Assembly: GCA_014729395.1 (NCBI GenBank)
Contig: WJJZ01000001.1
Span: forward strand, 67,727 to 131,726
From: Candidatus Magasanikiibacteriota bacterium
GTDB lineage: Bacteria; Patescibacteriota; Patescibacteriia; Magasanikbacterales; UBA922
DNA length: 64,000 nt
Direction: 5' to 3'
Below the pieces are notes generated by a model. The model searched no databases, had not been told where the DNA came from, and saw nothing but the letters and a program-made list of their open reading frames with translations. Position 1 is the stretch's first letter, and each line of letters begins with the position of its first letter. Positions 14,947 through 55,394 of this stretch are shown here, one piece after another. The translations under genes and the position numbers were made by a program.

Positions 14947-15471
14947 GTCTTGTTCATTATAGATGATCGTCCACCAAAGCCCGAACGAAGTGAAGGCGAA
15001 GGTGGAAGGAAAGTCCGAACTTCCCCTAAAATATTTTAGGGTCATGGTAGTGGGTAACACCCACCTGGGCATTGGCGACAATGTTTGCGGGAAAGTGCCA
15101 CAGAGACTATACTAATTGCGAAGCAACTATGGTGCTTCGCAGCCAAACGTGAAAAGTGTAAAGATGTTTAATTTTATCGCGTACGCTATAAATTAAGCTA
15201 CTTTACTCCGGCCGTGGTGACACGGTTTGGTGGTAAACCCTACCTGAAGAAAGAGCAGCGTCCCGACTTTAGTCGGGATGAAAAGTTAGCTCGTTATTAT
15301 CCTGAGTATATCGAAGGATTAGAGTTTGTTGGTAACAGCAGACCTAGATAAATGATCATCGCCCTTCGCTAAAGCTACGGGCGACAAGTCCAATTCAATA
15401 GAAAGAAAGGGACTTGTACTCCGAAGCTTTAGCGTAGGAGTACAAAATTCGGCTTATTTAATGGACAAGAC
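14947..15471 (+). ncRNA. rnpB: RNase P RNA (bacterial type A, with lineage-specific helix expansions, ~525 nt)
   Basis: Conserved GGAAGGAAAGTCCGAAC (P4), GGTAACACCCACCTGGG, GGGAAAGTGCCACAGAGA, GGTGGTAAACCCTACC, CCTAGATAAATGA and ACAAAATTCGGCTTATT. P1 pairing is GTCTTGTTCATTA with TAATGGACAAGAC. Confidence 0.85.
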
Positions 15472-15475
15472 AAAA

Positions 15476-15702: not shown

Positions 15703-16467
15703 TTAAAATCGTCTATCTTTCCCCACTACCATCTCTACTCTGCTTTTAGCCAATCTAATTTTAACTCTCGTTTCTTTGGATCTCTTGCCGTCAGCTTCTA
15801 CGACGAATGGCTTTTTACTGCTTACAATCATCTCTTCAAAAGGAAAAACACTGGGATCTTCTGTCTTAACCCGGCCAAACAATCCTTTTTTTATAATAGG
15901 TAAAACAAAAGCTTCCAATTTTCCATCTTGGGGATGAACGACCCAGTCTTTTTTATTTTTCCTGTGCCAAGTAAAAGGTTGTAAATTACAAACTACCAAT
16001 TCCAGTTTACTCTTGTCAGATGAAACTTCAAATTTTTCATCATATTCTATCATAATATCACTCGGTGGTATATGAAGACGTGATATAAAATAACGATTAT
16101 TCATCCAACCTGCATCCAACCTAAGTTTGCGACGCCTGGACAACACATCACAAGCATCTTCACCTACCGGAATTCCTAAAACTTTTGCTATATCATTACC
16201 CGGTCCCACCGGTAAAAAACCAAATAAAATATCACATGTTGCCGCACGTGATAAAACATGTCCGATTGTCTCGTCATTACCAACAACCACAATAGTCGTA
16301 GCGCCCTTGCTCAATTCTTCATCAACAATCATTTTCGTATCACTAAAATTTTGCAGCCGAATTATCTTACCGGCAATGCCGTAATCTGTCAATCTCGTTT
16401 CCATTGCTTTGACAGTGGAAGCAAATTTTTTCTGACGTAAAAAATTGTCGTACAAATAGACATACAT
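15703..16467 (-). CDS. Diacylglycerol-kinase-family lipid kinase (YegS/BmrU-like)
   Basis: DAGK catalytic-domain motifs VVVGNDETIGHV (GGDG-like) and LPVGPGNDIA. Confidence 0.6.
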   Translation of the reverse strand: MYVYLYDNFLRQKKFASTVKAMETRLTDYGIAGKIIRLQNFSDTKMIVDEELSKGATTIVVVGNDETIGHVLSRAATCDILFGFLPVGPGNDIAKVLGIPVGEDACDVLSRRRKLRLDAGWMNNRYFISRLHIPPSDIMIEYDEKFEVSSDKSKLELVVCNLQPFTWHRKNKKDWVVHPQDGKLEAFVLPIIKKGLFGRVKTEDPSVFPFEEMIVSSKKPFVVEADGKRSKETRVKIRLAKSRVEMVVGKDRRF

Positions 16468-16487
16468 ATCAACTTTTTATCATCCTC

Positions 16488-16976
16488 CTACTCCGTTTTG
16501 CTTGCTTTCTTTTTTGTTTTTGGTCGACCTAAGCTAATTTTTTTTTCCGGTTTGAATTGATCAACATCAAAACCCTTCATAGTTATTTTTCCTCGCAAAA
16601 GGGCTCCCCCTGCAACTATCAGAGTCTTGCAATCAATATCACCGCCCACTTGTGCGCTTGAAGTTAATTCCAAGGTTTCCGCCACCTTAACATTTCCTTT
16701 AATGGCTCCCGCAACTATAGCACTACCGGCTTTGACATTGGCAAAAATTTTTGCTCCCTCTTCCACGGTTAAAAGCTGACTGGTTTTAACATTACCGGAC
16801 ACCGTACCTTTTACCACGATGTCGCCTTCGGAAGCAAAATCTCCTTCTACTGTGACTGATGGGCCAACGACTGTTTCTATCTTGTCACTACTTGCCTGCT
16901 CCACAGGCATTTGTTCTTCCTCAGTCTCTTCATTATTTTGCTCCAAGGCTATTTGGGAAGATGGTTTTTTGAACAT
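16488..16976 (-). CDS. Bactofilin (polymer-forming cytoskeletal protein, CcmA-like)
   Basis: Repetitive beta-helix pattern G.V.G.V....L.V..G..G across about 100 aa with disordered termini. Confidence 0.7.
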   Translation of the reverse strand: MFKKPSSQIALEQNNEETEEEQMPVEQASSDKIETVVGPSVTVEGDFASEGDIVVKGTVSGNVKTSQLLTVEEGAKIFANVKAGSAIVAGAIKGNVKVAETLELTSSAQVGGDIDCKTLIVAGGALLRGKITMKGFDVDQFKPEKKISLGRPKTKKKASKTE

Positions 16977-20295: not shown

Positions 20296-22260
20296 TTATC
20301 CTTTAAAAAATTCAAGAACTTTATTATTAAAAGATTCCGGACTCTCTATTGACGGTATATGCCCCGTTCGCCTCATATAGAAAACCCTAGAATTTTGTAG
20401 TAAACCAAAATTTTGTGCATTTTTTTCAATAGGCATTAATTTGTCCTCTTGCCCCCAAATTATCAACGTATCATTCTTTATATTACCTAGATGATCTTTC
20501 AATATGAATTCCCTTCTAACACCCCACAAGTTAGATAATCTACTAATAAAAATTAAATTATGAGAAGTTATCATAGTTTCATAAAAATAATCAATAAATT
20601 CTTTTCTAATATTAATATTCTTATTATAAAAAACATCTTTCAAGAATTTTTCAACCCTCTTATTTTCTCTTGTTGGTTTTAAAAAAGTTCTAGAAACTAT
20701 TTTGGCCAGTGGCTTAAGTGATATAATTCTATCTCTAAAAGCCATATAATCTGTAAAACCTAAAGCATCCACAAGTATAATTTTATTTAATAGAACCTCA
20801 CCTCTCAATGCCAATTTTAATGTGACCCAACCACCTATTGAAGCTCCCATGATTGAAATTGGGCCGTTAAACTTATTCATAATAAAATTCTCTACCGTCA
20901 GCACTAAATCTTCCTCAAGTCTCAAATCATACAAATTCATTTTTGAAGATCTGCCACCGCCTGGCATATCTAAAGCAACTATTTTGAATTTCTTTGCCAA
21001 TTTCTCAATATTTTCATGCCAAAAACCCCACCCTATATTTCCACCATGAATCAACAACAACGGCTCACCTTCACCCGCCTCAATATAATTAATATCATAA
21101 CCATTCACTTTCATCTGTTTAATCTCTATATCCACACCGATTGAGTCTGCTAATCTTTGTTCGGCCGTTTTATTTTCTGAGAAATTATTATTCTTTTTAT
21201 CAAACATTAATAGATCGTTAAATTTTACTATTCTTCTACCCCCCTGCAAATCTCCGTCCAATATTAATTTCCTGGCAATATAGGCCCCCATACCACCACT
21301 CACTGAAACAGTACTCGCCAACTGCGGTCTACCAACCAAACTCCTCCCTATCTCTGCCACGGACTCCAATGCCCTGTGTGGAACATTTTCACGCCCGACC
21401 AATTTTACCGCTAGCCTATTTTTTTCTTCCCTACTTAAATTTTTACCAAGAATTTCTTCCTCTATATTACCTAATAAACCATTAAAAAATTCCAAATCTT
21501 TATTTTTGTCATATCTCTCAATATCTATCAGCAATCTATCACCCAAATTAGTCAACATTACTACAGGGACTCCTTTTTTCCTGGCCTCAAGACGCAACAA
21601 AATTTTCATTTCAAAATCATCAATAGCCTCAAAAATTATATCCGGTCTGTCTTCATTAAAAAAACTAGCCAAATTTGCCTTATTCAAACCCTCTTTATAC
21701 AATGACAAATTCGCATATGGATCTAATTCATAAATCTGTCTGGCAATTATATTAGTCTTTTCTTCCCCCACATCACTAACTGCCGCCCTTAATCTATTTA
21801 GATTAGTGGTATCCATTTTGTCAAAATCAGCCAACTTCATTTTTCCTCCAATACCGCTGTAAACCAAATTTGTAATTACATGACTACCGACCGATAAACC
21901 CACAACTCCAATAGTCGATTCATAAAGTTTATTCTGTTCAGACTCTTTAATTAAATTTTTATTTCTATTAGTGCGTAATTTAAAATAATCCTCTTTATTT
22001 AATATATGTAAAAAAACGCCATTCCAAGGAAAATATACCCAATTACCTTGCCCTTTTTGTTCTATAAATTCATTTATTTTTCTTGTATAATTTTCGTCCT
22101 TTTCCAGATCAGGATTATTAATTTCAAAAAGTTCTTCTAACTGATCCTTGTATAAATCACAAATTTTCCAAATTTTATTATCAACTTTAAAATTTTCTAT
22201 GTCATTTATAGAATATCCCCCCTCCCAAAAAAATACTGGTTTATTGGAGTTCGTCATCAT
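20296..22260 (-). CDS. Fusion protein: ThiF/MoeB-type E1-like adenylyltransferase domain + C-terminal alpha/beta-hydrolase domain
   Basis: IGVVGLSVGSHVITNLVYSGIGGKMKLADFDKMDTTNLNRL (Rossmann GxGxxG + NLNRQ-like). C-term HGG...GASIGG (GxSxG nucleophile) and a late His. Confidence 0.65.
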   Translation of the reverse strand: MMTNSNKPVFFWEGGYSINDIENFKVDNKIWKICDLYKDQLEELFEINNPDLEKDENYTRKINEFIEQKGQGNWVYFPWNGVFLHILNKEDYFKLRTNRNKNLIKESEQNKLYESTIGVVGLSVGSHVITNLVYSGIGGKMKLADFDKMDTTNLNRLRAAVSDVGEEKTNIIARQIYELDPYANLSLYKEGLNKANLASFFNEDRPDIIFEAIDDFEMKILLRLEARKKGVPVVMLTNLGDRLLIDIERYDKNKDLEFFNGLLGNIEEEILGKNLSREEKNRLAVKLVGRENVPHRALESVAEIGRSLVGRPQLASTVSVSGGMGAYIARKLILDGDLQGGRRIVKFNDLLMFDKKNNNFSENKTAEQRLADSIGVDIEIKQMKVNGYDINYIEAGEGEPLLLIHGGNIGWGFWHENIEKLAKKFKIVALDMPGGGRSSKMNLYDLRLEEDLVLTVENFIMNKFNGPISIMGASIGGWVTLKLALRGEVLLNKIILVDALGFTDYMAFRDRIISLKPLAKIVSRTFLKPTRENKRVEKFLKDVFYNKNINIRKEFIDYFYETMITSHNLIFISRLSNLWGVRREFILKDHLGNIKNDTLIIWGQEDKLMPIEKNAQNFGLLQNSRVFYMRRTGHIPSIESPESFNNKVLEFFKG

Positions 22261-22262
22261 AC

Positions 22263-23777
22263 CTATTTTTTAACCCACTGCTGTTTACCTTGCGGTTTAA
22301 AATATTTCGGATCTTCATATTCATAAAGAACAATCCGTGGTACTGCCTTTCTACCCAAATCTGAATATAATTTACTATACTCCGAATTCTCTTGTAACAA
22401 TTTATGTAAAACCGATTCACCTATTTTATTATTTAAATCCACACTTTTGGCCACACCGCCCTTTAACTCCACATTTATTTCTAAAAATTGATTTTGTTTA
22501 TTATCAAATTTAGTTACCATGGTAAATTTCCCACTAACGTAATTTTCCAAACTCTTAGCCTGCAGAGCACTCCTTATAGTCTCAGGATAAACATTAAGGC
22601 CATAAATCGTAACTGTAAAATCCTCTCTTTCATAAACATAAACAAATGGCAATTTCCACAAACTATCTTGTATCCGATTTTTTTTAGATTCTTTAAATAA
22701 ATTGACACCCAAATCCCTAAAATTATTTTCTATTTCCTTTAAAGTAATTATACCACCATGATCTTTCAAATCATAACGCACTAATGGTAAACCACTGAAG
22801 GCCGAACAGGCTAAAGTATTATTTATTTTTTCAAAAAAGAACATTTCCGGAATGTACTGGGTCAAGGTCGGCACCTTGTCGCTACGATAAAATATCTTGT
22901 TATATATATCCTTATTTTCTCTTGCCATCTTTCTAATCAAAACACAGACCGGAGTTTCATGCGACATCGTACCCAAATCTACTGTTCCATAATGATTCAA
23001 ACTAGCCCTAAAAACATCTTTTATCCCAGTATTTTGGATTATGTAATCTCTAAAATCTTCGGGGAAACCCTCGGCTGAAAAAATAAAACCAAGGTCAATT
23101 CCCTTCCAATCTATATTTTGTTCAAGTCCTTCATCTATCAAATCTTTAACTAATGGTGGGTAGCCCCCAATTATGACTTGATCAAATTTTTTGCCAAATT
23201 TTTTTACCGCTTTTATCGCATCGCTTTTGCTTGTACCCGGAGTTATGATGCTCAATTTATATCTTCCACTCCTCCTGATATAATCGAGAGCCTGTAATGT
23301 AAACACACCGCCTATCCAAACACCCATACCAAAACAGTTTATATATAAAGTGGATTTTTTATCTATTTGAAAATTTTCCAATAAATAAAGCTCTGCCGTC
23401 AGTGCATATTGCAAATTTTGTAACTCCGTTCTTGGAAAATAAAAAGGTTCACCGGTAGAACCCGAAGTGGCTGAAACTGTCCAACTTTTCCCCCCAAAAT
23501 TTCCATCCCAACACAAATCCTCTGTCTTATAATTACGCAAATAATTTTCCTTATCCATTGTAGGTACATCTTCAAATTCAGAAAAACTTTTTATCTTCTC
23601 CGGATCAATTTTATTTTTTTTTAAAAAATCCTTATACGCCGGCACCCTTACCGCTGCCTTTTTAAATAATTCCAAAGTCTGTTTTCTACCCCTTTCTATC
23701 CAAAAAGATTCCGGATACTTTTTTAAATATTCCAATAGCTGGGGTGCTTTTTTATAGAACTCCTTAACAATATACAT
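22263..23777 (-). CDS. Phenylacetate-CoA-ligase-like adenylate-forming enzyme (PaaK/CapK/F390-synthetase family)
   Basis: SATSGSTGEPFYFP P-loop of the ANL superfamily; size and arrangement match the PaaK family. Confidence 0.7.
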   Translation of the reverse strand: MYIVKEFYKKAPQLLEYLKKYPESFWIERGRKQTLELFKKAAVRVPAYKDFLKKNKIDPEKIKSFSEFEDVPTMDKENYLRNYKTEDLCWDGNFGGKSWTVSATSGSTGEPFYFPRTELQNLQYALTAELYLLENFQIDKKSTLYINCFGMGVWIGGVFTLQALDYIRRSGRYKLSIITPGTSKSDAIKAVKKFGKKFDQVIIGGYPPLVKDLIDEGLEQNIDWKGIDLGFIFSAEGFPEDFRDYIIQNTGIKDVFRASLNHYGTVDLGTMSHETPVCVLIRKMARENKDIYNKIFYRSDKVPTLTQYIPEMFFFEKINNTLACSAFSGLPLVRYDLKDHGGIITLKEIENNFRDLGVNLFKESKKNRIQDSLWKLPFVYVYEREDFTVTIYGLNVYPETIRSALQAKSLENYVSGKFTMVTKFDNKQNQFLEINVELKGGVAKSVDLNNKIGESVLHKLLQENSEYSKLYSDLGRKAVPRIVLYEYEDPKYFKPQGKQQWVKK

Positions 23778-24831
23778 TTTCAGGTACTTTAATTTTACAC
23801 AACTTTTCAGTGGCCTTTTGATTGGCTAACTGACTAACAGGCAAATCTTCTTGTTTGCTCTGCAAAAAAATATTTTTTAAATTTTTCTTAATATTAGAAA
23901 GTTTATTTATTATTCTGTCAGTACTATGAACCCCATACTGATATTCATCTACTACACTAATAAATCCACCACTGTTTGAAATATAGTCCGGAGCGTATAT
24001 TATACCCTTCCTATGTAGTTCAAGGCCTATTGAATCGTTCTGCAGCTGGCTATTAGCTGCCCCAGCTACCCCCCGACAATTAATCTCATTAATTGAAATA
24101 TTGTTTATTGCATGACTAAGAGCGCAGGGACAAAAAATGTCTACGTCCAGTTTATGGATATTTTCAGAATCTTCCACAATTATATTCGGGTACTTATTTT
24201 TAGTTTTATCAACTAACGTACTATTAATATCTGAAACATAAATTTTAGCCCCTCTCTCATAAAGTAGCTTTAATAATTCCAGGCCGGTTTTCCCCAAACC
24301 CTGTATCGCAAAACTTTTATCTGAAAAATTATGAGTTCCAAAAATTTCCTCCAAAACAACCTCAATCGCATAAAAAACACCCAGGGCTGTAAAATAACCA
24401 GCCGGAACTTCACCACCTATTATATATTGGCTAGTGCTGCACATGATATTCAAATCATCTTTGTTTACACCTACATCTGAACCGGTTACAAAGATACCGC
24501 CTAACTCATCAATTTTTTTTGCATACTTTTTAAAAACATCCTTTCTTTTTTCGGGAGTATCCACCCCATTACTCATTATTACCGCCTTAGCACCACCATA
24601 GGGTAAATCTGCCATTGAACATTTAAAAGACATGGTTCTGGATAAACGTAATGCCTCTTGCAATGCCTCCTCTGGAGAGTCATAGTGCCAAAATCTAGTA
24701 GCACCAAAAGATGGTTGATTATCACACTTACTATGAATAGCAACAAAAGCATGAAGGTCACCATCATTAAAAGTTAACACCTCATGATGATTATCAAATT
24801 CAGTCAAATTTTTAATTTTATCTACAGCCAT
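23764..24831 (-). CDS. Glu/Leu/Phe/Val-type amino-acid dehydrogenase
   Basis: DLPYGGAKAV substrate-domain motif; C-terminal NAD(P) Rossmann FAIQGLGKTGLELLKLL; start placed at ATG 24831 (the track start is TTG). Confidence 0.7.
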   Translation of the reverse strand: MAVDKIKNLTEFDNHHEVLTFNDGDLHAFVAIHSKCDNQPSFGATRFWHYDSPEEALQEALRLSRTMSFKCSMADLPYGGAKAVIMSNGVDTPEKRKDVFKKYAKKIDELGGIFVTGSDVGVNKDDLNIMCSTSQYIIGGEVPAGYFTALGVFYAIEVVLEEIFGTHNFSDKSFAIQGLGKTGLELLKLLYERGAKIYVSDINSTLVDKTKNKYPNIIVEDSENIHKLDVDIFCPCALSHAINNISINEINCRGVAGAANSQLQNDSIGLELHRKGIIYAPDYISNSGGFISVVDEYQYGVHSTDRIINKLSNIKKNLKNIFLQSKQEDLPVSQLANQKATEKLCKIKVPENVYC

Positions 24832-24843
24832 ATCCAAAATAAT

Positions 24844-25854
24844 TTAATAAATTAATTTGTCAGACCCAAATCTAGGGCTGTGAGCCATTCTTTGATAGGG
24901 ATAACCGATTCTAACTAAGATTTTAGGTAAATTATTCGTATTTATTGTTTCTTTCATTTTTTCTAAATAAAAAGGAATCTCTTGGAAAGAGGTGGCTAAA
25001 CCATTCTTTTCAGCAATTAAAGCAATCCTTTCAAATATTCTACCGGCCATAAAACAATTCTTGGAACTTATTTTGTCCAGGCTGATTACAAAAAAAGCCG
25101 GTGTGTATTCAAGTAATAGTTCTTTGTCTTTTTTTCTTAAAATTTTTACAACATTTACAAAGTTTAATACGAAAGGCGTAAAAAAAGATAAAGCCGTCGG
25201 GAAACCCATGGTAAAACCCGGCATTCCGGTAAAAGAGCGAGTCATGTTATTTCTTTGATAGCTCCCCAATTCCTTCCTAAAGCTCCTATCAGAGAAAGCT
25301 TTTTCCCTCGCATCTAAAATAATATTTACCACCTTCTCCTTTACTTTTTTCTGTTGAACCAAATCAACTGAAATACCTTCTGTAGAAAAACCTTTAATCG
25401 TATTTAATATGGTCTCATCTGGCAAGTCTTGACGAAATTTACCCCTATTTGAATGCCTTTTTTTAATTAAAAAAATTAAGTGTTCTCTATCATCCTTCGC
25501 ACCATTTTTACTTCTAAAACTTACTTCACAAACTCTTTCATCGAAATCCGAAAAAAAATACTCCAAATTGTATTTAAAACCATAATAATTCGCCGCTACC
25601 AATAAATTTTCCAAGGCACATCCAATTGATATATACATCAAATTGTCATTCGGATCGGCCACATCCAAAGTTTGACTGGGGTTCTTTCTTATTTCAATCC
25701 TATTTTTTTCAATTTTAAAAAGCCATGGTTGGCTATTATGAGTTGACGGTGCAAGAACAGCAAATTTGATCAAAAATTCTAATTGCTTTCGAAGATTTTT
25801 GTCATGAGGAAAATTATCTACTTTTACATTCCAAGCTTCGTAATTCTTTTTCAT
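24844..25854 (-). CDS. Nitroreductase-fold flavoprotein (two-lobed, SagB/Acg-like architecture)
   Basis: APSTHNSQPWLF nitroreductase signature; 336 aa, longer than the classical NfsB. Confidence 0.6.
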   Translation of the reverse strand: MKKNYEAWNVKVDNFPHDKNLRKQLEFLIKFAVLAPSTHNSQPWLFKIEKNRIEIRKNPSQTLDVADPNDNLMYISIGCALENLLVAANYYGFKYNLEYFFSDFDERVCEVSFRSKNGAKDDREHLIFLIKKRHSNRGKFRQDLPDETILNTIKGFSTEGISVDLVQQKKVKEKVVNIILDAREKAFSDRSFRKELGSYQRNNMTRSFTGMPGFTMGFPTALSFFTPFVLNFVNVVKILRKKDKELLLEYTPAFFVISLDKISSKNCFMAGRIFERIALIAEKNGLATSFQEIPFYLEKMKETINTNNLPKILVRIGYPYQRMAHSPRFGSDKLIY

Positions 25855-25904
25855 GCAGAATAATTAATTATCATTATTATAGCACAAAATTACTTTTTTT
25901 TCAC

Positions 25905-26990
25905 CTAATTATTATTTATATCCTTTTTCTTACAGCAGTAAATTAATCTTTTAATCTTTACAAAATCTTTATTTATTTTTCTAATCACAAAAGGACCTCC
26001 ATAAACAAAACCTGTCACCAACTGAACCACATCAGCACCACTTTTAATTTTTTTATAAGCATCTTCGGCTGTAAAAATACCCCCCACACCAATAATCGCC
26101 AGCTTGGTACCTGCTTTTTTTCTTATATAACTAATCGTATCATTACTCTTATTTTCTAAAATTTTACCGGACAAGCCGCCGGGGTGTTTAAGTTCATCCG
26201 GACCACTATTGGATTCCAAATCGTTTCTATCTTTTAAAAGATTGGTGGCAATTATTCCGGTAATTTCATATTCCAAACACATATCAATTATTTTATCCAA
26301 ATTTTCAGTACCCATATCAGGGCCAATTTTAATAAAAATATCTTTTTTAATTTCTTTCTTCTCTCGAATTAATTTTACCCTCTCCAACAATTCCTTTATA
26401 AAAGAAATCTGCTCAAAAATATTACAAGCGGCAACATTCGGGCAACTGACATTTAAAGTTATGTAGTCAGCATACTTATACAATTCATAAAAAGAATTTA
26501 CATAATCTGAAACCATATATTCTTTTGGTACGTCCGTAGTCGGTGCAATGCTGACACCAAAAGGTATATCCATCTTATTTTTAATATCTTTTAATCGCCT
26601 ACGGGCTTTAGCCGCTCCGTTATTACATAATCCATAATACACAATCAGAGACTTGTCTTTTGGCAGACGCCAAAGTCTTGGTTTGGGATTGCCCGGCTGG
26701 CCGCGAAAAGTAACAGACCCAAACTCCACAAAGCCAAATCCCATCATTGAATAAGCCAGCGGTGCTTCAATATTTTTATCAAAACCGGCTGCCAGCCCGA
26801 TTGGATTTTCAAACTCAAGGTTCCCAATTTTCACTTTAAGCCGTGGATCGTTAACAAAAAAAATCCTTTTCAGGATTTTGCGCAAAAAATTATTTTCACT
26901 CGTGTATTTCAAAAATTTGATAGCCAAATTATGAATCCATTCCGGATCTGTTTTAAAAAAAATAGGTCTGATTATCCATCTATAAAACAT
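25905..26990 (-). CDS. pyrD: Dihydroorotate dehydrogenase, class 2 (quinone)
   Basis: NPIGLAAGFDKN, GFGFVEFGSVTFRGQPGNPKPRLWRL, C-terminal IGVGGI...GADVVQL. Confidence 0.8.
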   Translation of the reverse strand: MFYRWIIRPIFFKTDPEWIHNLAIKFLKYTSENNFLRKILKRIFFVNDPRLKVKIGNLEFENPIGLAAGFDKNIEAPLAYSMMGFGFVEFGSVTFRGQPGNPKPRLWRLPKDKSLIVYYGLCNNGAAKARRRLKDIKNKMDIPFGVSIAPTTDVPKEYMVSDYVNSFYELYKYADYITLNVSCPNVAACNIFEQISFIKELLERVKLIREKKEIKKDIFIKIGPDMGTENLDKIIDMCLEYEITGIIATNLLKDRNDLESNSGPDELKHPGGLSGKILENKSNDTISYIRKKAGTKLAIIGVGGIFTAEDAYKKIKSGADVVQLVTGFVYGGPFVIRKINKDFVKIKRLIYCCKKKDINNN

Positions 26991-34703: not shown

Positions 34704-36254
34704 TTATACCAACGCTCTACCCGTCATTTCGTCGGGTTTTTTGATATCAAGAATTTTTAAAATCGTTGGCGCTACGTCCGCCAATACTCCGGCCGGTTGA
34801 AGTAAACTAAGGTCACCTTCCGGTGCATCCCCGGTTATACCTGCTCGTCCTCTGCTTTCCTCATTCAAAATAATAAAAGGTACTGCATTGCTTTTTTCAA
34901 TCATTTTACCATCATTAAAAAAATTTTCAGTACCCGGATGAGAACCAACAATGAACATTGTTCCCTCTTTTGCCATAATATGATCATAAATTTTGCCAAT
35001 TGCTTTATCAACAAGCTCAACTCCCCTAACCAAAGTTGAAAAATTATTGGTTTTTGCCAATATATCCAAATTACTAATATTTATGAGAAAAAAGTCACTT
35101 TCCATATTATCGATTCTTCTAATTATTTTTTTTATCAATTTATTCAATGACAAACCAGGCTCTAAATTATAATCTTCCAGTTCAGGATCATTTACATAAT
35201 CCGTTTCAATACTCTCCTTCTCCCATGAAGCAAACCCATCAAAAAATGTACTTATACTACCATAACGCCCAACAGAAGCGATCCTATATTGGCTTAACTC
35301 ATTTTCCTGTAAAACTCTCCCTAAACAGTTATGGGACACTAATGGAGGAAAAATTACTCTAACCGGCATTTCTCTTTCATACTCAACAATAGTTGCGCAA
35401 AAAAGATCTTTTAGATAGGAGCGAGAAAATTTGTTAAATGATGGCAAAACAAAACTTTCCAGTAACTGTCGACTGCCGGCCGGAGAATGATTTAAAAAAA
35501 TTAAAGCATCTCCGCTCTTTATCGTTTCTCCTTCTTCTACTCTCGCAGGTACTATTTCCTTGGCGGGTATCTTTTTTTCAACCGCTTCGTGCATTATATG
35601 CATTGGTTTGGGTAGAGATCTTTCATATTCAGACTCCGTCATAGCTCTGTATACACTCTCTATTCTATCCCACCAAAAACCATCATTTAATGCATAAAAA
35701 GAACCTGAAATAGAAGATATTTTCCAATTTTTTTTCACTTTCAATTTATTTATTATTTTTTTTATACTCTTTTTAGCATTCTCTTCTTTACCTGCTTCAG
35801 AATCCAACACTACGTGAATAGAAACTTTTTTTACTTTTTGTTTCTGAAGAAATTTTAAAATAGCCTCAAAATGATTAAAACGAGCATAATGATTATTATC
35901 AAATGCAGCTGTTATATGTAATGTGGAATTATTTTCCTCAACATGCTCTATTGCAGATTTTAAAACTCTTTTTTCAAATAAACTTTCATCCGCAATAGCC
36001 CTGTTGATACGAGAAATATTATCAGGAAAAATTCTTCCCGTGCCTATATTCAAATGTCCGGATATACTATTTCCAATTTTTTCATCACAAAGACCAACCT
36101 CTTTACCGGAGGCATATAAAGTCATAACTGGATACTCTTTTACAAATCGATCAAAATTTGAAATTTTTGCAAGGTTGAACGGATTTTCTTGTGAGTTTGG
36201 TGAAACCCCCCAGGCTTCTAATATTAATAACGCAAAAGGTTTTTTTTCTTTCAT
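34704..36254 (-). CDS. Divergent paralog of 2,3-bisphosphoglycerate-independent phosphoglycerate mutase (alkaline-phosphatase superfamily)
   Basis: LLILEAWGVSPNS...GNSISGHLNIGTGRIF parallels the iPGM N-terminal motifs but is strongly diverged. Confidence 0.6.
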   Translation of the reverse strand: MKEKKPFALLILEAWGVSPNSQENPFNLAKISNFDRFVKEYPVMTLYASGKEVGLCDEKIGNSISGHLNIGTGRIFPDNISRINRAIADESLFEKRVLKSAIEHVEENNSTLHITAAFDNNHYARFNHFEAILKFLQKQKVKKVSIHVVLDSEAGKEENAKKSIKKIINKLKVKKNWKISSISGSFYALNDGFWWDRIESVYRAMTESEYERSLPKPMHIMHEAVEKKIPAKEIVPARVEEGETIKSGDALIFLNHSPAGSRQLLESFVLPSFNKFSRSYLKDLFCATIVEYEREMPVRVIFPPLVSHNCLGRVLQENELSQYRIASVGRYGSISTFFDGFASWEKESIETDYVNDPELEDYNLEPGLSLNKLIKKIIRRIDNMESDFFLINISNLDILAKTNNFSTLVRGVELVDKAIGKIYDHIMAKEGTMFIVGSHPGTENFFNDGKMIEKSNAVPFIILNEESRGRAGITGDAPEGDLSLLQPAGVLADVAPTILKILDIKKPDEMTGRALV

Positions 36255-36266
36255 AATTGCTTAAAA

Positions 36267-37829
36267 CTAATAAAGCGAATGACCTGTCATTTCCGGTGGC
36301 TTCTGAATTCCCATCATTTTCAAAAGAGTCGGTGCCACATCGGCTAATTTTCCGTTTTTTAATTTTATTTTTTTTGTGTCTTTTCTAATCAATATACAAG
36401 GTACGGGGTTGGTTGTATGCTCGGTCATCATTTCGCCGGTCTCCTGGTTTATCATTTCTTCGGCATTACCATGATCGGCCACTATTAAAACTTGGCCGTT
36501 CTTTTTCAAAAATGCATCAACCATTCTGGAAACTTGTTCGTCCACAGCTTTTATAGCTTTTTTGGCAGCTTTAAAATCACCGGTATGCCCCACCATATCG
36601 GGGTTCGGAAAATTAGTGCAGATAAAATTGTATTTATTGGATTTTATATAACTCAAAACCTTATCAATCATTTCTTTAGAATTCATCTCCGGTTTGTCTG
36701 CATAAGATCGAATAGTCGGAGATTTTACCAATTCTCTCTTTTCCCCATTGATTGGCTGAGCATAACCGCCATTGATAAAGTAAGTCACATGGGCATATTT
36801 TTCTGTTTCAGAAATATACAACTGGTTATAATTATCATCTATGGCTTTGGCCAAACTGTTTTCCACGTCAGGACTGGGAAAAGCTGTAAACACACCCGGC
36901 AAATCCGGACCAAAATCCGTCATAGCGACAAATCTGGTATTTTTTGGCATCTTAGTCCTTTTAAAAGCGCCCGGGTTTTTCTTTTGAAAATCAGGTTGAA
37001 CAAAAGCTTTGGTGATCTGACGGGCCCTATCACTGCGCGCGTTGATAAAATAAATAGCGTCATTATCTTTGATAGTTGCAATCGGCTTATTATCATTTAC
37101 TATCACAGTCGGACAAATGTATTCATCCGTGTCCCCTCTATTATACGACTGAGATAAAGCTTCTTCAGCTGAAAAAGCGGTGCAACCTTTGCCCAAGACC
37201 ATAGCTTCATAAGATCTTTTGGTTCTTTTCCAAATTTTATTACGATCCATAGCATAAAACCTACCCATAATAGTGGCGATTTTTTCATCCGCAAGCATAT
37301 GGCCGCGCAATTCCCGTAAAAAATCAGCCGCACCATGTGGGGATGAATCTCGACCGTCGGTAAACAAATGCAAGTAAACTTTTTTCTGACCCTCACGGCG
37401 GAAAAATTCCAACATGGCATAAAGATGCTCCGGATAAGCATGAGCGCTATTTCCGTCCGTAAGCAGTCCCATTACGTGAACAGCGGTCTTATATTTCTTT
37501 GTATGATAAAGCGCTTGCTTAAAAGCATGGTTTTTAAAAAAAGTCCCATCATGAATTGCCTCTGAAATCATGACCAGGTCCTGCTTTACTACTCTACCGG
37601 CACCAATATTAAAATGACCGGCTTCGGAATTACCCTGCTGACCCGGAAAAAGTCCGGCCGCCTTGCCATAAGTAACAAGTTCGGAAGATGGGTACTTATC
37701 CATGTAGGAAAAAATATTCGGAGCGGTTTTCGGAGTGATGGCATTGCCTTTATTTTTTGGGTCAGTCAAGCCAAAACCATCAAGAATTATAAGGGCGGTG
37801 GGGATGTGGTTTTTTTTATTGTTTTTCAT
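36267..37829 (-). CDS. gpmI: 2,3-bisphosphoglycerate-independent phosphoglycerate mutase
   Basis: LIILDGFGLTDPKNKGNAI...GNSEAGHFNIGAGRVV. Start set at ATG 37829 (the track start 37883 is TTG). Confidence 0.85.
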   Translation of the reverse strand: MKNNKKNHIPTALIILDGFGLTDPKNKGNAITPKTAPNIFSYMDKYPSSELVTYGKAAGLFPGQQGNSEAGHFNIGAGRVVKQDLVMISEAIHDGTFFKNHAFKQALYHTKKYKTAVHVMGLLTDGNSAHAYPEHLYAMLEFFRREGQKKVYLHLFTDGRDSSPHGAADFLRELRGHMLADEKIATIMGRFYAMDRNKIWKRTKRSYEAMVLGKGCTAFSAEEALSQSYNRGDTDEYICPTVIVNDNKPIATIKDNDAIYFINARSDRARQITKAFVQPDFQKKNPGAFKRTKMPKNTRFVAMTDFGPDLPGVFTAFPSPDVENSLAKAIDDNYNQLYISETEKYAHVTYFINGGYAQPINGEKRELVKSPTIRSYADKPEMNSKEMIDKVLSYIKSNKYNFICTNFPNPDMVGHTGDFKAAKKAIKAVDEQVSRMVDAFLKKNGQVLIVADHGNAEEMINQETGEMMTEHTTNPVPCILIRKDTKKIKLKNGKLADVAPTLLKMMGIQKPPEMTGHSLY

Positions 37830-37893
37830 AAAATCTTTATATATTAGTGAGATTATTATAGTAGTTTTGGAGATTTTTTTCAATCGGCTAAAC

Positions 37894-55317: not shown

Positions 55318-55390
55318 GCGCCTGTAGCTCAGGGGTTAGAGCACAACGCTTATAACGTTGGGGTCGGTGGTTCAATTCCACCCAGGCGCA
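55318..55390 (+). tRNA. tRNA-Ile with a genomically encoded UAU anticodon (loop CTTATAA)
   Basis: Canonical cloverleaf: GCGCCTG/CAGGCGC acceptor, D-arm GCTC-AGGGGTTA-GAGC, anticodon stem CAACG/CGTTG, T-arm GGTGG-TTCAATT-CCACC, A73; CCA not encoded. Confidence 0.8.
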
Positions 55391-55394
55391 CAAT

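Follow-up and report, generated by a model that had tools for sequence, protein, structure and literature searches.

We analyzed a 64-kb stretch of DNA (hereafter the window; 64,000 nucleotides, contig WJJZ01000001.1 of GenBank assembly GCA_014729395.1) from a Candidatus Magasanikiibacteriota bacterium, in which a first-pass annotation had flagged a minus-strand operon of five genes. Four of these genes, together with the sensor kinases adjoining them, are a gene module that is conserved across many bacteria of the candidate phyla radiation (CPR). The module encodes a flavin-dependent oxidase of the nitroreductase superfamily (FDO), an ELFV-type dehydrogenase, a PaaK-fold adenylate-forming ligase (PaaKL), a fusion of a ThiF-like domain with an alpha/beta hydrolase (ABH), and histidine kinases (HK) with a seven-transmembrane (7TM) sensor domain. 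In our reading, to which we give about an even chance of being correct, it makes an oxazolone-type small molecule (an azlactone or an N-acyl-dehydroamino acid) from a hydrophobic or aromatic amino acid and has its own membrane sensor kinase. All five open reading frames (ORFs) of the annotated operon are present with exact coordinates, and their tight packing (gaps of 2-50 nt plus one 14-nt overlap) was confirmed. Synteny also bears out the functional linkage claimed for them, except that the co-conserved unit leaves out the dihydroorotate dehydrogenase (DHODH) gene pyrD and takes in the kinases.

The survey started from a scan with an alignment of the ligase, using one genome per species. A total of 153 relatives were found, and the best 80 loci were taken further and annotated with phmmer; component shares were counted in those 46 of the loci found through the ligase that had full flanks. 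ThiF occurs in 100% of these 46 loci, an ELFV dehydrogenase or an aminotransferase in 96% (70% and 26%, respectively), the kinase in 93%, FDO within the module in 80%, a receiver-only response regulator in 59%, and the alpha/beta hydrolase in 26%. Same-strand module genes are separated by a median gap of 2 bp (95th percentile, 56 bp) in the 80 loci. Moreover, the enzymes are fused to each other in many combinations, including ThiF+FDO (in at least eight loci), FDO+ABH, ThiF+FDO+ABH, ThiF+ABH, ELFV+FDO, ELFV+PaaKL, PaaKL+ThiF, ThiF+PaaKL, and the triple fusion ELFV+PaaKL+ThiF, which, when chained, yield the order ELFV-PaaKL-ThiF-FDO-ABH. The ThiF-hydrolase fusion of the window, noted earlier as unusual, does exist and is one rare variant among these many forms. 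Its protein is 100% identical to one of a Candidatus Magasanikbacteria metagenome-assembled genome, which places the window in CPR. Contigs carrying homologs of the fusion protein in distant CPR genomes show the same neighbors (FDO, ELFV, a ligase of about 505 aa, ThiF, hydrolase, and a HisKA_7TM kinase), and one locus (L005) has an aminotransferase in place of ELFV.

Genomes of CPR bacteria are very small and encode few biosynthetic pathways, and the gene set had been called unexpected in a lineage of minimal metabolism. This does not hold, because the module is widespread in CPR: all 80 best loci of the 153 relatives bear CPR labels or generic names and are CPR-like, and the module is kept in at least 11 named candidate lineages (Magasanik-, Paceibacter-, Roizman-, Woese-, Gottesman-, Doudna-, Woyke-, Adler-, Lipton-, and Kaiserbacteria, and Saccharimonadales). 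This wide spread, along with a ligase identity of about 50-59% across CPR lineages, suggests that the module is important to the CPR lifestyle. Several of the best 80 loci are named "uncultured Gammaproteobacteria" yet show CPR synteny, one of them being a 938-kb "chromosome". Such "uncultured Gammaproteobacteria" or "Polyangiaceae" labels with CPR-type synteny were seen in the metagenome-assembled genome records L008, L011, L013, L014, L019, and L039, among others, and the taxonomic labels of that submission series look unreliable.

The linkage also bears on whether the genes belong to a pyrimidine operon or are unrelated housekeeping genes that came together by chance, as the first-pass annotation had allowed when it named independent genes co-localized only here as its refuter. 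The pyrD gene is a genuine DHODH by hidden Markov model (HMM) score and lies only 50 bp upstream of the FDO gene. Nevertheless, it is found near the module in only 4 of the 46 loci, the window ORFs scanned (up to 55.2 kb) yielded no domain of the pyrimidine pathway, and the other four genes and the kinase are co-conserved and fused across CPR lineages. For these genes the explanation is thus refuted, and as a whole we regard it as hardly credible.

Both kinases contain the Pfam domain HisKA_7TM, and for kinase 1 HisKA and HATPase_c were matched as well. In kinase 1, H324, the phospho-acceptor histidine, and the ATP-binding N, G1, and G2 boxes are conserved in 76 homologs. Kinase 2 is 42% identical to kinase 1 over 482 residues, and tandem kinases behind the module were also found in two other loci (L026 and L075). 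We also ran the survey in reverse, searching metagenome contigs with a six-sequence alignment of the 7TM domain and requiring at least 1.2 kb of upstream sequence. Of the 45 closest 7TM relatives 28 were usable, and in 25 of these a module enzyme gene ends no more than 1.5 kb upstream; among more distant 7TM relatives the corresponding figure is 6 of 27. The kinase is therefore a component of the module, co-inherited with the enzymes in both directions, and the former description of the two kinases as orphans has to be dropped. Longer kinases have a GAF domain between the 7TM region and HisKA, and the module-linked response regulators are receiver-only proteins of 120-140 aa without a DNA-binding domain. 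In the literature searched, HisKA_7TM was mentioned only in two surveys of archaeal signaling.

As to chemistry, the 654-aa fusion protein has a ThiF domain at residues 99-234 and matches the Rv1355c-family model NF005901 with 292 bits over residues 20-363, the next-best ThiF-type model reaching 81 bits. The NF005901 match covers the whole ThiF half of the protein; since it takes up only the N-terminal half of the model, the score lies below the full-length cutoff of 476. In another Magasanikbacteria genome with the same module (L026), a fused ThiF-FDO protein scores 534 bits against this cutoff; a further fused ThiF-FDO protein (L055) scores 452 bits, and others, with an Acg-like FDO half, about 380 bits. 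Between the ThiF domain of the window and the corresponding half of the L026 fusion, identity is 37%. G121, S123, G125, D147, N153, N155, R156, K168, and D214 are conserved in 82 homologs, making up a G-x-S-x-G nucleotide loop, D147, an NxNR motif, K168, and D214. By model score, the ThiF domain is homologous to the cyclase half of TrzS (Rv1355c), and D214 is presumed to be equivalent to TrzS D217.

TrzS is a ThiF-FDO enzyme that cyclizes N-acyl-Trp with ATP and desaturates the product with O2 to give tryptazolone (PMC12856293). The same ThiF and FDO chemistry leads to tyrazolones in TyzACB, through TyzB and TyzC (PMC10404671), and in OxzAB, through OxzB (bioRxiv 10.1101/2020.06.11.147165), and genes for ThiF and nitroreductase proteins accompany N-acyl-dehydrotyrosine clusters (PMC12479983). 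In searches of the literature, nothing was found that links CPR or Patescibacteria to oxazolones, ThiF-nitroreductase clusters, or these kinases.

The first-pass annotation had thought of two other uses for an E1-like domain, of which one was a ubiquitin-like conjugation set with the E1-like protein as activator and the hydrolase as deconjugase. The ThiF/E1 Rossmann core and weak matches to E1-E2 models of the cyclic-oligonucleotide-based antiphage signaling system (CBASS) would fit it. These matches, however, reach at most 37 bits and concern the Rossmann core only, against 292 bits for the Rv1355c family; a search for small ORFs at 15.0-30.5 kb returned neither one ending in GG nor any in an intergenic position; HMM searches found no E2 or JAB domain; no Cys is conserved at 95% or more in the 82 ThiF domains; and the module gaps of about 2 bp in the 80 loci also speak against it. 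We consider this reading highly improbable. Defence-system membership was rejected as well, PADLOC giving only weak generic E1-core and HATPase matches.

The other use was tailoring of a ribosomal peptide, with the E1-like protein docking or activating the peptide and a SagB-like dehydrogenase acting on it. ThiF-like proteins and nitroreductase-fold dehydrogenases do co-occur in azole-forming and other clusters for peptides that are made by ribosomes and modified after translation, such as thiazole/oxazole-modified microcins (TOMMs), according to a review (PMC12596934). On the other side, none of the ORFs scanned in the module and around it had a YcaO match, no precursor gene was found, and the median module gap of 2 bp leaves no room for one. 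The flavoprotein is of the Acg/FDO type, and no TOMM- or SagB-type NCBIfam model was among the matches listed for the module proteins. This possibility too is very slight. What stands of the earlier proposals is the more general one, an amino-acid-derived metabolite pathway rather than primary metabolism, which the present data support.

The FDO of the window matches the Acg-family flavin mononucleotide oxidoreductase model NF047509 over residues 28-329 with 176.6 bits (cutoff, 199), and also the C-terminal half of the Rv1355c family model with 68 bits. Its motif APSxxNxQPW and R133 are conserved in 64 homologs, and in other genomes FDO is fused to ThiF, ABH, or ELFV. The nitroreductase fold assigned to the flavoprotein earlier was right, as was the ELFV type of the dehydrogenase, and the label SagB-like was not, as the protein belongs to the Acg/FDO subgroup. 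From homology, FDO is predicted to be a C-alpha/C-beta desaturase. It is only 24% identical to the FDO half of the L026 fusion, so that the module uses two FDO lineages. Variants with no FDO within reach were seen in L014, L021, L031, L070, L078, L079, and L085, arranged as ThiF-ELFV-PaaKL-HK or as aminotransferase/PaaKL-ThiF-HK; in such lineages, either the desaturase is encoded elsewhere or the pathway stops at the saturated product.

The 504-aa ligase has no Pfam match. Its AlphaFold2 model (pLDDT 86) gave PaaK1/2 (E 1e-22, TMt ~0.65), BT_0428, ClxA, and HCL as top Foldseek matches, the ClxA chains at E values of 4e-15 to 1e-13, and the earlier call of a PaaK/CapK-like adenylate-forming ligase is thereby upheld. 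TSGSTGEP, YGT.D, RYDLKD, and a C-terminal Lys are conserved in the alignment, and we take these to be adenylation motifs. Compared between CPR lineages, the ligase is 53-59% identical, and its relatives form 802 clusters at 50% identity (E<=1e-30). By its model, the protein shares its fold with the phenylacetate-CoA ligase PaaK and with ClxA, and it has the putative adenylation motifs; it differs from PaaK relatives in being about 70 residues longer and in scoring 28 bits on the PaaK equivalog models (cutoffs, 646-700), a fold-level match that does not assign substrate or nucleophile. No N-acyltransferase of the OxzA/TyzA/TrzA/NAS type was found among the module ORFs of the window and the 80 loci, in which all ORFs were accounted for. 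Because none is encoded, direct amide formation by the ligase is the proposed route. There is precedent for amide or ester formation without coenzyme A (CoA) in the class of enzymes to which the ligase belongs (ClxA/NatL2 type), and aryl-pyruvates are activated after a dedicated aminotransferase in pathways of the terrequinone and atromentin types.

The dehydrogenase contains the Pfam domains ELFV_dehydrog and ELFV_dehydrog_N, and its closest solved structures are leucine dehydrogenases (LeuDH; 3vpx and 6acf) and a tryptophan dehydrogenase (5b37), with E ~1e-59. K72, K84, and D121, presumably catalytic by analogy with LeuDH, are conserved in 51 homologs. The aminotransferases that hold the ELFV slot in 26% of the 46 loci are AspC-like or HisC-like. 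Displacement of the dehydrogenase by these two unrelated families implies that it is the interconversion of amino acid and 2-oxo acid itself that the pathway needs.

The hydrolase domain was confirmed by domain HMMs as part of the fusion (Pfam Abhydrolase_1 and Abhydrolase_6, residues 400-644), with the nucleophile motif GASIGG as annotated before. Its Ser-Asp-His triad is intact and conserved in 27 homologs, and elsewhere it either has a gene of its own or is fused to FDO, ThiF-FDO, or ThiF. The nearest solved relatives are the meta-cleavage-product hydrolases CarC, HsaD, and BphD. A function in meta-cleavage C-C hydrolysis was rejected, because the domain has GASIGG where these enzymes have GNSxGG, GHI stands in place of GHW, and nothing in it aligns with the lid Arg; the hallmarks of such hydrolases are Asn before Ser, Trp after His, and a dienoate-binding lid Arg.

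These relatives raise the question of whether the module might instead break down, salvage, or detoxify compounds of a host, be they amino acids of the aromatic or branched-chain type, aryl acids, or N-acyl amino acids; the kinase would then sense the substrate. Enzymes typical of catabolism include ELFV dehydrogenases, aminotransferases, PaaK-type ligases, and meta-cleavage-related hydrolases, and CPR bacteria depend on host metabolites. But two ATP-consuming adenylations and a TrzS-family cyclase are ill-suited to degradation, the meta-cleavage hallmark residues are absent from the hydrolase, the hydrolase itself is found in only about a quarter of the loci, and no conserved downstream catabolic genes belong to the module. 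A catabolic route is therefore unlikely in our view, though less so than the peptide- and ubiquitin-based readings.

For the biosynthetic reading, the following steps are proposed. First, the dehydrogenase, or the aminotransferase in other lineages, would interconvert an amino acid and its 2-oxo acid. The PaaK-like enzyme would then adenylate a carboxylic acid, plausibly that 2-oxo acid, and link it directly to an amino group, forming an N-acyl amino acid. Third, by homology to TrzS, TyzB, and OxzB, ThiF would adenylate the carboxylate of the N-acyl amino acid, whereupon the amide oxygen closes the 5(4H)-oxazolone ring. Desaturation of C-alpha/C-beta by FDO would follow, again by homology. Where it is present, as in the window, the Ser-His-Asp hydrolase may open or transfer the azlactone, for example to an N-acyl-dehydroamino acid. 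Finally, the presumably co-transcribed 7TM kinase, with its added GAF domain in many lineages, would sense the product or an intermediate and signal to the receiver-only response regulator. The first, second, fifth, and sixth steps are drawn from gene content, fusions, and synteny.

Compared to the known systems, the module has much of their core and a number of components of its own. The module protein matches the ThiF-like ATP-dependent cyclase of mycobacterial TrzAS (Rv1356c/Rv1355c), N- and C-terminal extensions included. In both systems the cyclase either has a nitroreductase-superfamily flavin oxidase as its partner or is fused to one, and a small-molecule substrate takes the place of a precursor peptide. 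TrzAS, however, has a TrzA-type N-acyltransferase where the module has the PaaK-fold adenylating ligase, and the module adds the dehydrogenase or aminotransferase, sometimes the hydrolase, and the 7TM histidine kinase. In addition, the oxidase of the window is Acg-like and not Rv1355c-like, and the genes are split and fused otherwise, with ThiF here joined to the hydrolase. OxzAB of Pseudoalteromonas rubra and TyzACB (Rv2336-Rv2338c) share the logic of N-acylation of an aromatic amino acid, cyclization by ThiF, and desaturation by FDO, and TyzB and TyzC show that ThiF and FDO can be separate proteins, as is possible in the module too. Unlike the module, they take their acyl group from acyl-CoA by means of an N-acyl amino acid synthase, their clusters have no dehydrogenase, hydrolase, or kinase, and their hosts are Proteobacteria and Actinobacteria, not CPR. 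The N-acyl-dehydrotyrosine clusters (stieleriacines, thalassotalic and kyonggic acids; PMC12479983) likewise have ThiF and nitroreductase beside an enzyme that forms N-acyl amino acids, and their products are open-chain dehydro-amino acids, which is what opening of an azlactone by the hydrolase would give; they differ in their NasY-type synthases and methyltransferases and in having no hydrolase or kinase.

Several points weigh against an oxazolone-type pathway with its own sensor. The genes do not fix the product, acyl donor, amino acid, or dehydrogenase direction of the pathway. Nor does the sequence of the ligase tell whether it forms an amide or a CoA thioester. Given its Acg-like type, its low score on the Rv1355c oxidase half, and its distance from the L026 oxidase, the FDO of the window may not be a desaturase, and about 20% of the loci have no FDO nearby. 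The FDOs known so far depend on O2, and many CPR bacteria lead an anaerobic life. On the sensing side, the adjacency of the genes is no proof of product binding by the kinase, and a phmmer search with two module-linked regulators as queries found no response regulator in the 64-kb window.

If the pathway is right in outline, the known part is the oxazolone-synthetase core; the new parts are a different acylating enzyme, the extra steps on the amino acid and by the hydrolase, and a two-component sensor dedicated to the pathway. ThiF-FDO oxazolone chemistry would be extended to a new lineage, by a route that works without an acyl-CoA-dependent N-acyltransferase. The dedicated kinase gives a testable idea, namely that a pathway product or intermediate is the kinase ligand, and fused enzymes such as ELFV-PaaKL-ThiF and ThiF-FDO-ABH are ready-made constructs for heterologous expression.

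A bolder proposal, which we put forward tentatively and think more likely wrong than right, is that an azlactone or N-acyl-dehydroamino acid made by CPR bacteria themselves is their common signal and is read by a dedicated 7TM(-GAF) receptor kinase, serving communication among episymbionts or between symbiont and host. The layout resembles CqsA/CqsS and LqsA/LqsS, in which the synthase of a small hydrophobic molecule lies beside a multi-pass membrane histidine kinase without a periplasmic domain. The enzymes and receptor families of those systems are unrelated to those of the module, whose kinase is only predicted to bind a ligand. If true, the proposal would give the first chemical communication system described for CPR and the first physiological role for bacterial oxazolones, which is an open question (PMC12856293).

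The same chemistry could also yield a product that is no signal, such as an envelope lipid, an antimicrobial, a stress protectant, or a host-directed effector, with the kinase regulating the operon or sensing an outside cue. In the literature, roles as membrane lipids, metabolites linked to stress, and antimicrobials have been considered for oxazolones and N-acyl-dehydrotyrosines (PMC12856293, PMC12479983), many kinases adjoin the operons that they control, and genes for a bactofilin and a diacylglycerol kinase (DAGK)-like lipid kinase follow the module in Magasanikbacteria-type loci. Against this, the linked response regulators have a receiver domain and no DNA-binding domain, so that there is no sign of the operon being under simple transcriptional control; the kinase gene closes the operon on its 3' side, following the last enzyme gene by a few bp; and the kinase subfamily is specific to the module. 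We hold such a product to be a serious minority possibility, on a par with the signal proposal.

The features of the locus, all on the minus strand of the window, are collected in Table 1. In the 5' to 3' order of that strand, the genes are spaced by 50 nt between pyrD and FDO, 6 nt between FDO and ELFV, a 14-nt overlap of ELFV and PaaKL, 2 nt between PaaKL and the fusion gene, 6 nt between the fusion gene and kinase 1, and 2 nt between the kinases.

Table 1. Features of the module locus and its upstream neighbor (coordinates are window positions)
Feature	Position	Strand	Remark or basis
pyrD (dihydroorotate dehydrogenase)	25905..26990	-	Upstream neighbor, not a core module member
Promoter-like site (GTGAAA, 17-nt spacer, TG-TATAAT)	25876..25904	-	In the 50-bp pyrD-FDO gap
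FDO, flavin-dependent oxidase of the nitroreductase superfamily, Acg-like, two-lobed, 336 aa	24844..25854	-	HMM and synteny
ELFV-type NAD(P)-dependent dehydrogenase, predicted for hydrophobic/aromatic amino acid, 357 aa, TTG start	23764..24837	-	Pfam and structure search
PaaKL, PaaK-fold adenylate-forming ligase, 504 aa	22263..23777	-	AlphaFold2/Foldseek; most conserved module marker
Fusion gene, ThiF-like domain plus alpha/beta hydrolase, 654 aa	20296..22260	-	HMM
ThiF-like domain, putative adenylating cyclase, ~residues 1-365 of the fusion	21166..22260	-	NF005901
Alpha/beta hydrolase (ABH) domain, ~residues 378-654 of the fusion, optional component	20299..21129	-	Pfam
Histidine kinase 1, 7TM sensor, HisKA, and HATPase, 543 aa	18658..20289	-	Pfam
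Histidine kinase 2, tandem paralog of kinase 1, 535 aa	17048..18655	-	Pfam and identity

The promoter-like site is a possible separate start of the module, in a region whose count of such sites equals the expectation from shuffled sequence. At the other end, the genes for bactofilin and the DAGK-like lipid kinase (15703-16976, minus strand) lie 3' of the module kinase in all Magasanikbacteria-type loci examined (L004, L006, L087, and L088), which may reflect lineage synteny or a functional neighborhood.

The pyrD product scores 369 bits on the quinone-type DHODH model NF003652 (cutoff, 267) and has a class-2-like N-terminal extension. The class-2 assignment made earlier agrees with both features; at odds with it, the active site carries the motif NVSCPN, in which Pro is preceded by Cys. 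An active-site Cys is a feature of class 1 DHODHs and Ser one of class 2, and to our knowledge CPR bacteria generally lack quinones. SCPN was found in all eight PyrD proteins checked (the window, L012, L026, L052, L020, L040, L048, and L070), of which those of L048 and L070 have a different N-terminus. Leaving the kinship of the loci aside, pyrD is directly upstream of the module in Magasanikbacteria-type loci (L012, L026, L052, L088, and L101 listed; 9 bp from the FDO gene in L088), and it also adjoins the module in one Paceibacterota locus (L020). It is absent at the module in L004 and L006, and argS directly abuts the FDO gene in L004, L006, L007, L010, and L025. With its presence near the module in only 9% of the full-flank loci, pyrD was rejected as a member of the module and is treated as a lineage-specific neighbor. 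Since DHODH itself desaturates a cyclic N-acyl amino acid, pyrD may, by analogy, still be functionally linked to the module.

Elsewhere in the window, the first 2 kb (1-2000) have a GC content of 45%, compared to about 35% in the remainder. An ORF of 505 aa with a GTG start lies at 120-1637 (plus strand), and its sole match is a sub-threshold MopE-like metal-binding motif (25.5 bits; cutoff, 27). Bacterial class A RNase P RNA was detected at 14950-15472 (plus strand; 116.8 bits, gathering score 100), and its length of 523 nt for a 367-position model suggests that it carries large insertions. A tRNA-like gene at 40961-41035 (plus strand) was predicted by ARAGORN with an 8-nt anticodon loop, a four-base anticodon 'tatc', and no amino acid assigned; in Rfam it has sub-threshold matches only (tRNA-Sec, 28 bits; Tymo tRNA-like, 27 bits). 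A tRNA-Ile with the anticodon TAT, an uncommon bacterial way of reading AUA, was found at 55318-55391 (plus strand; Rfam tRNA, 72.5 bits). Moreover, tandem paralogs of cofactor-independent phosphoglycerate mutase (516 and 538 aa) are encoded at 34704-37883 (minus strand), the first being much more divergent.

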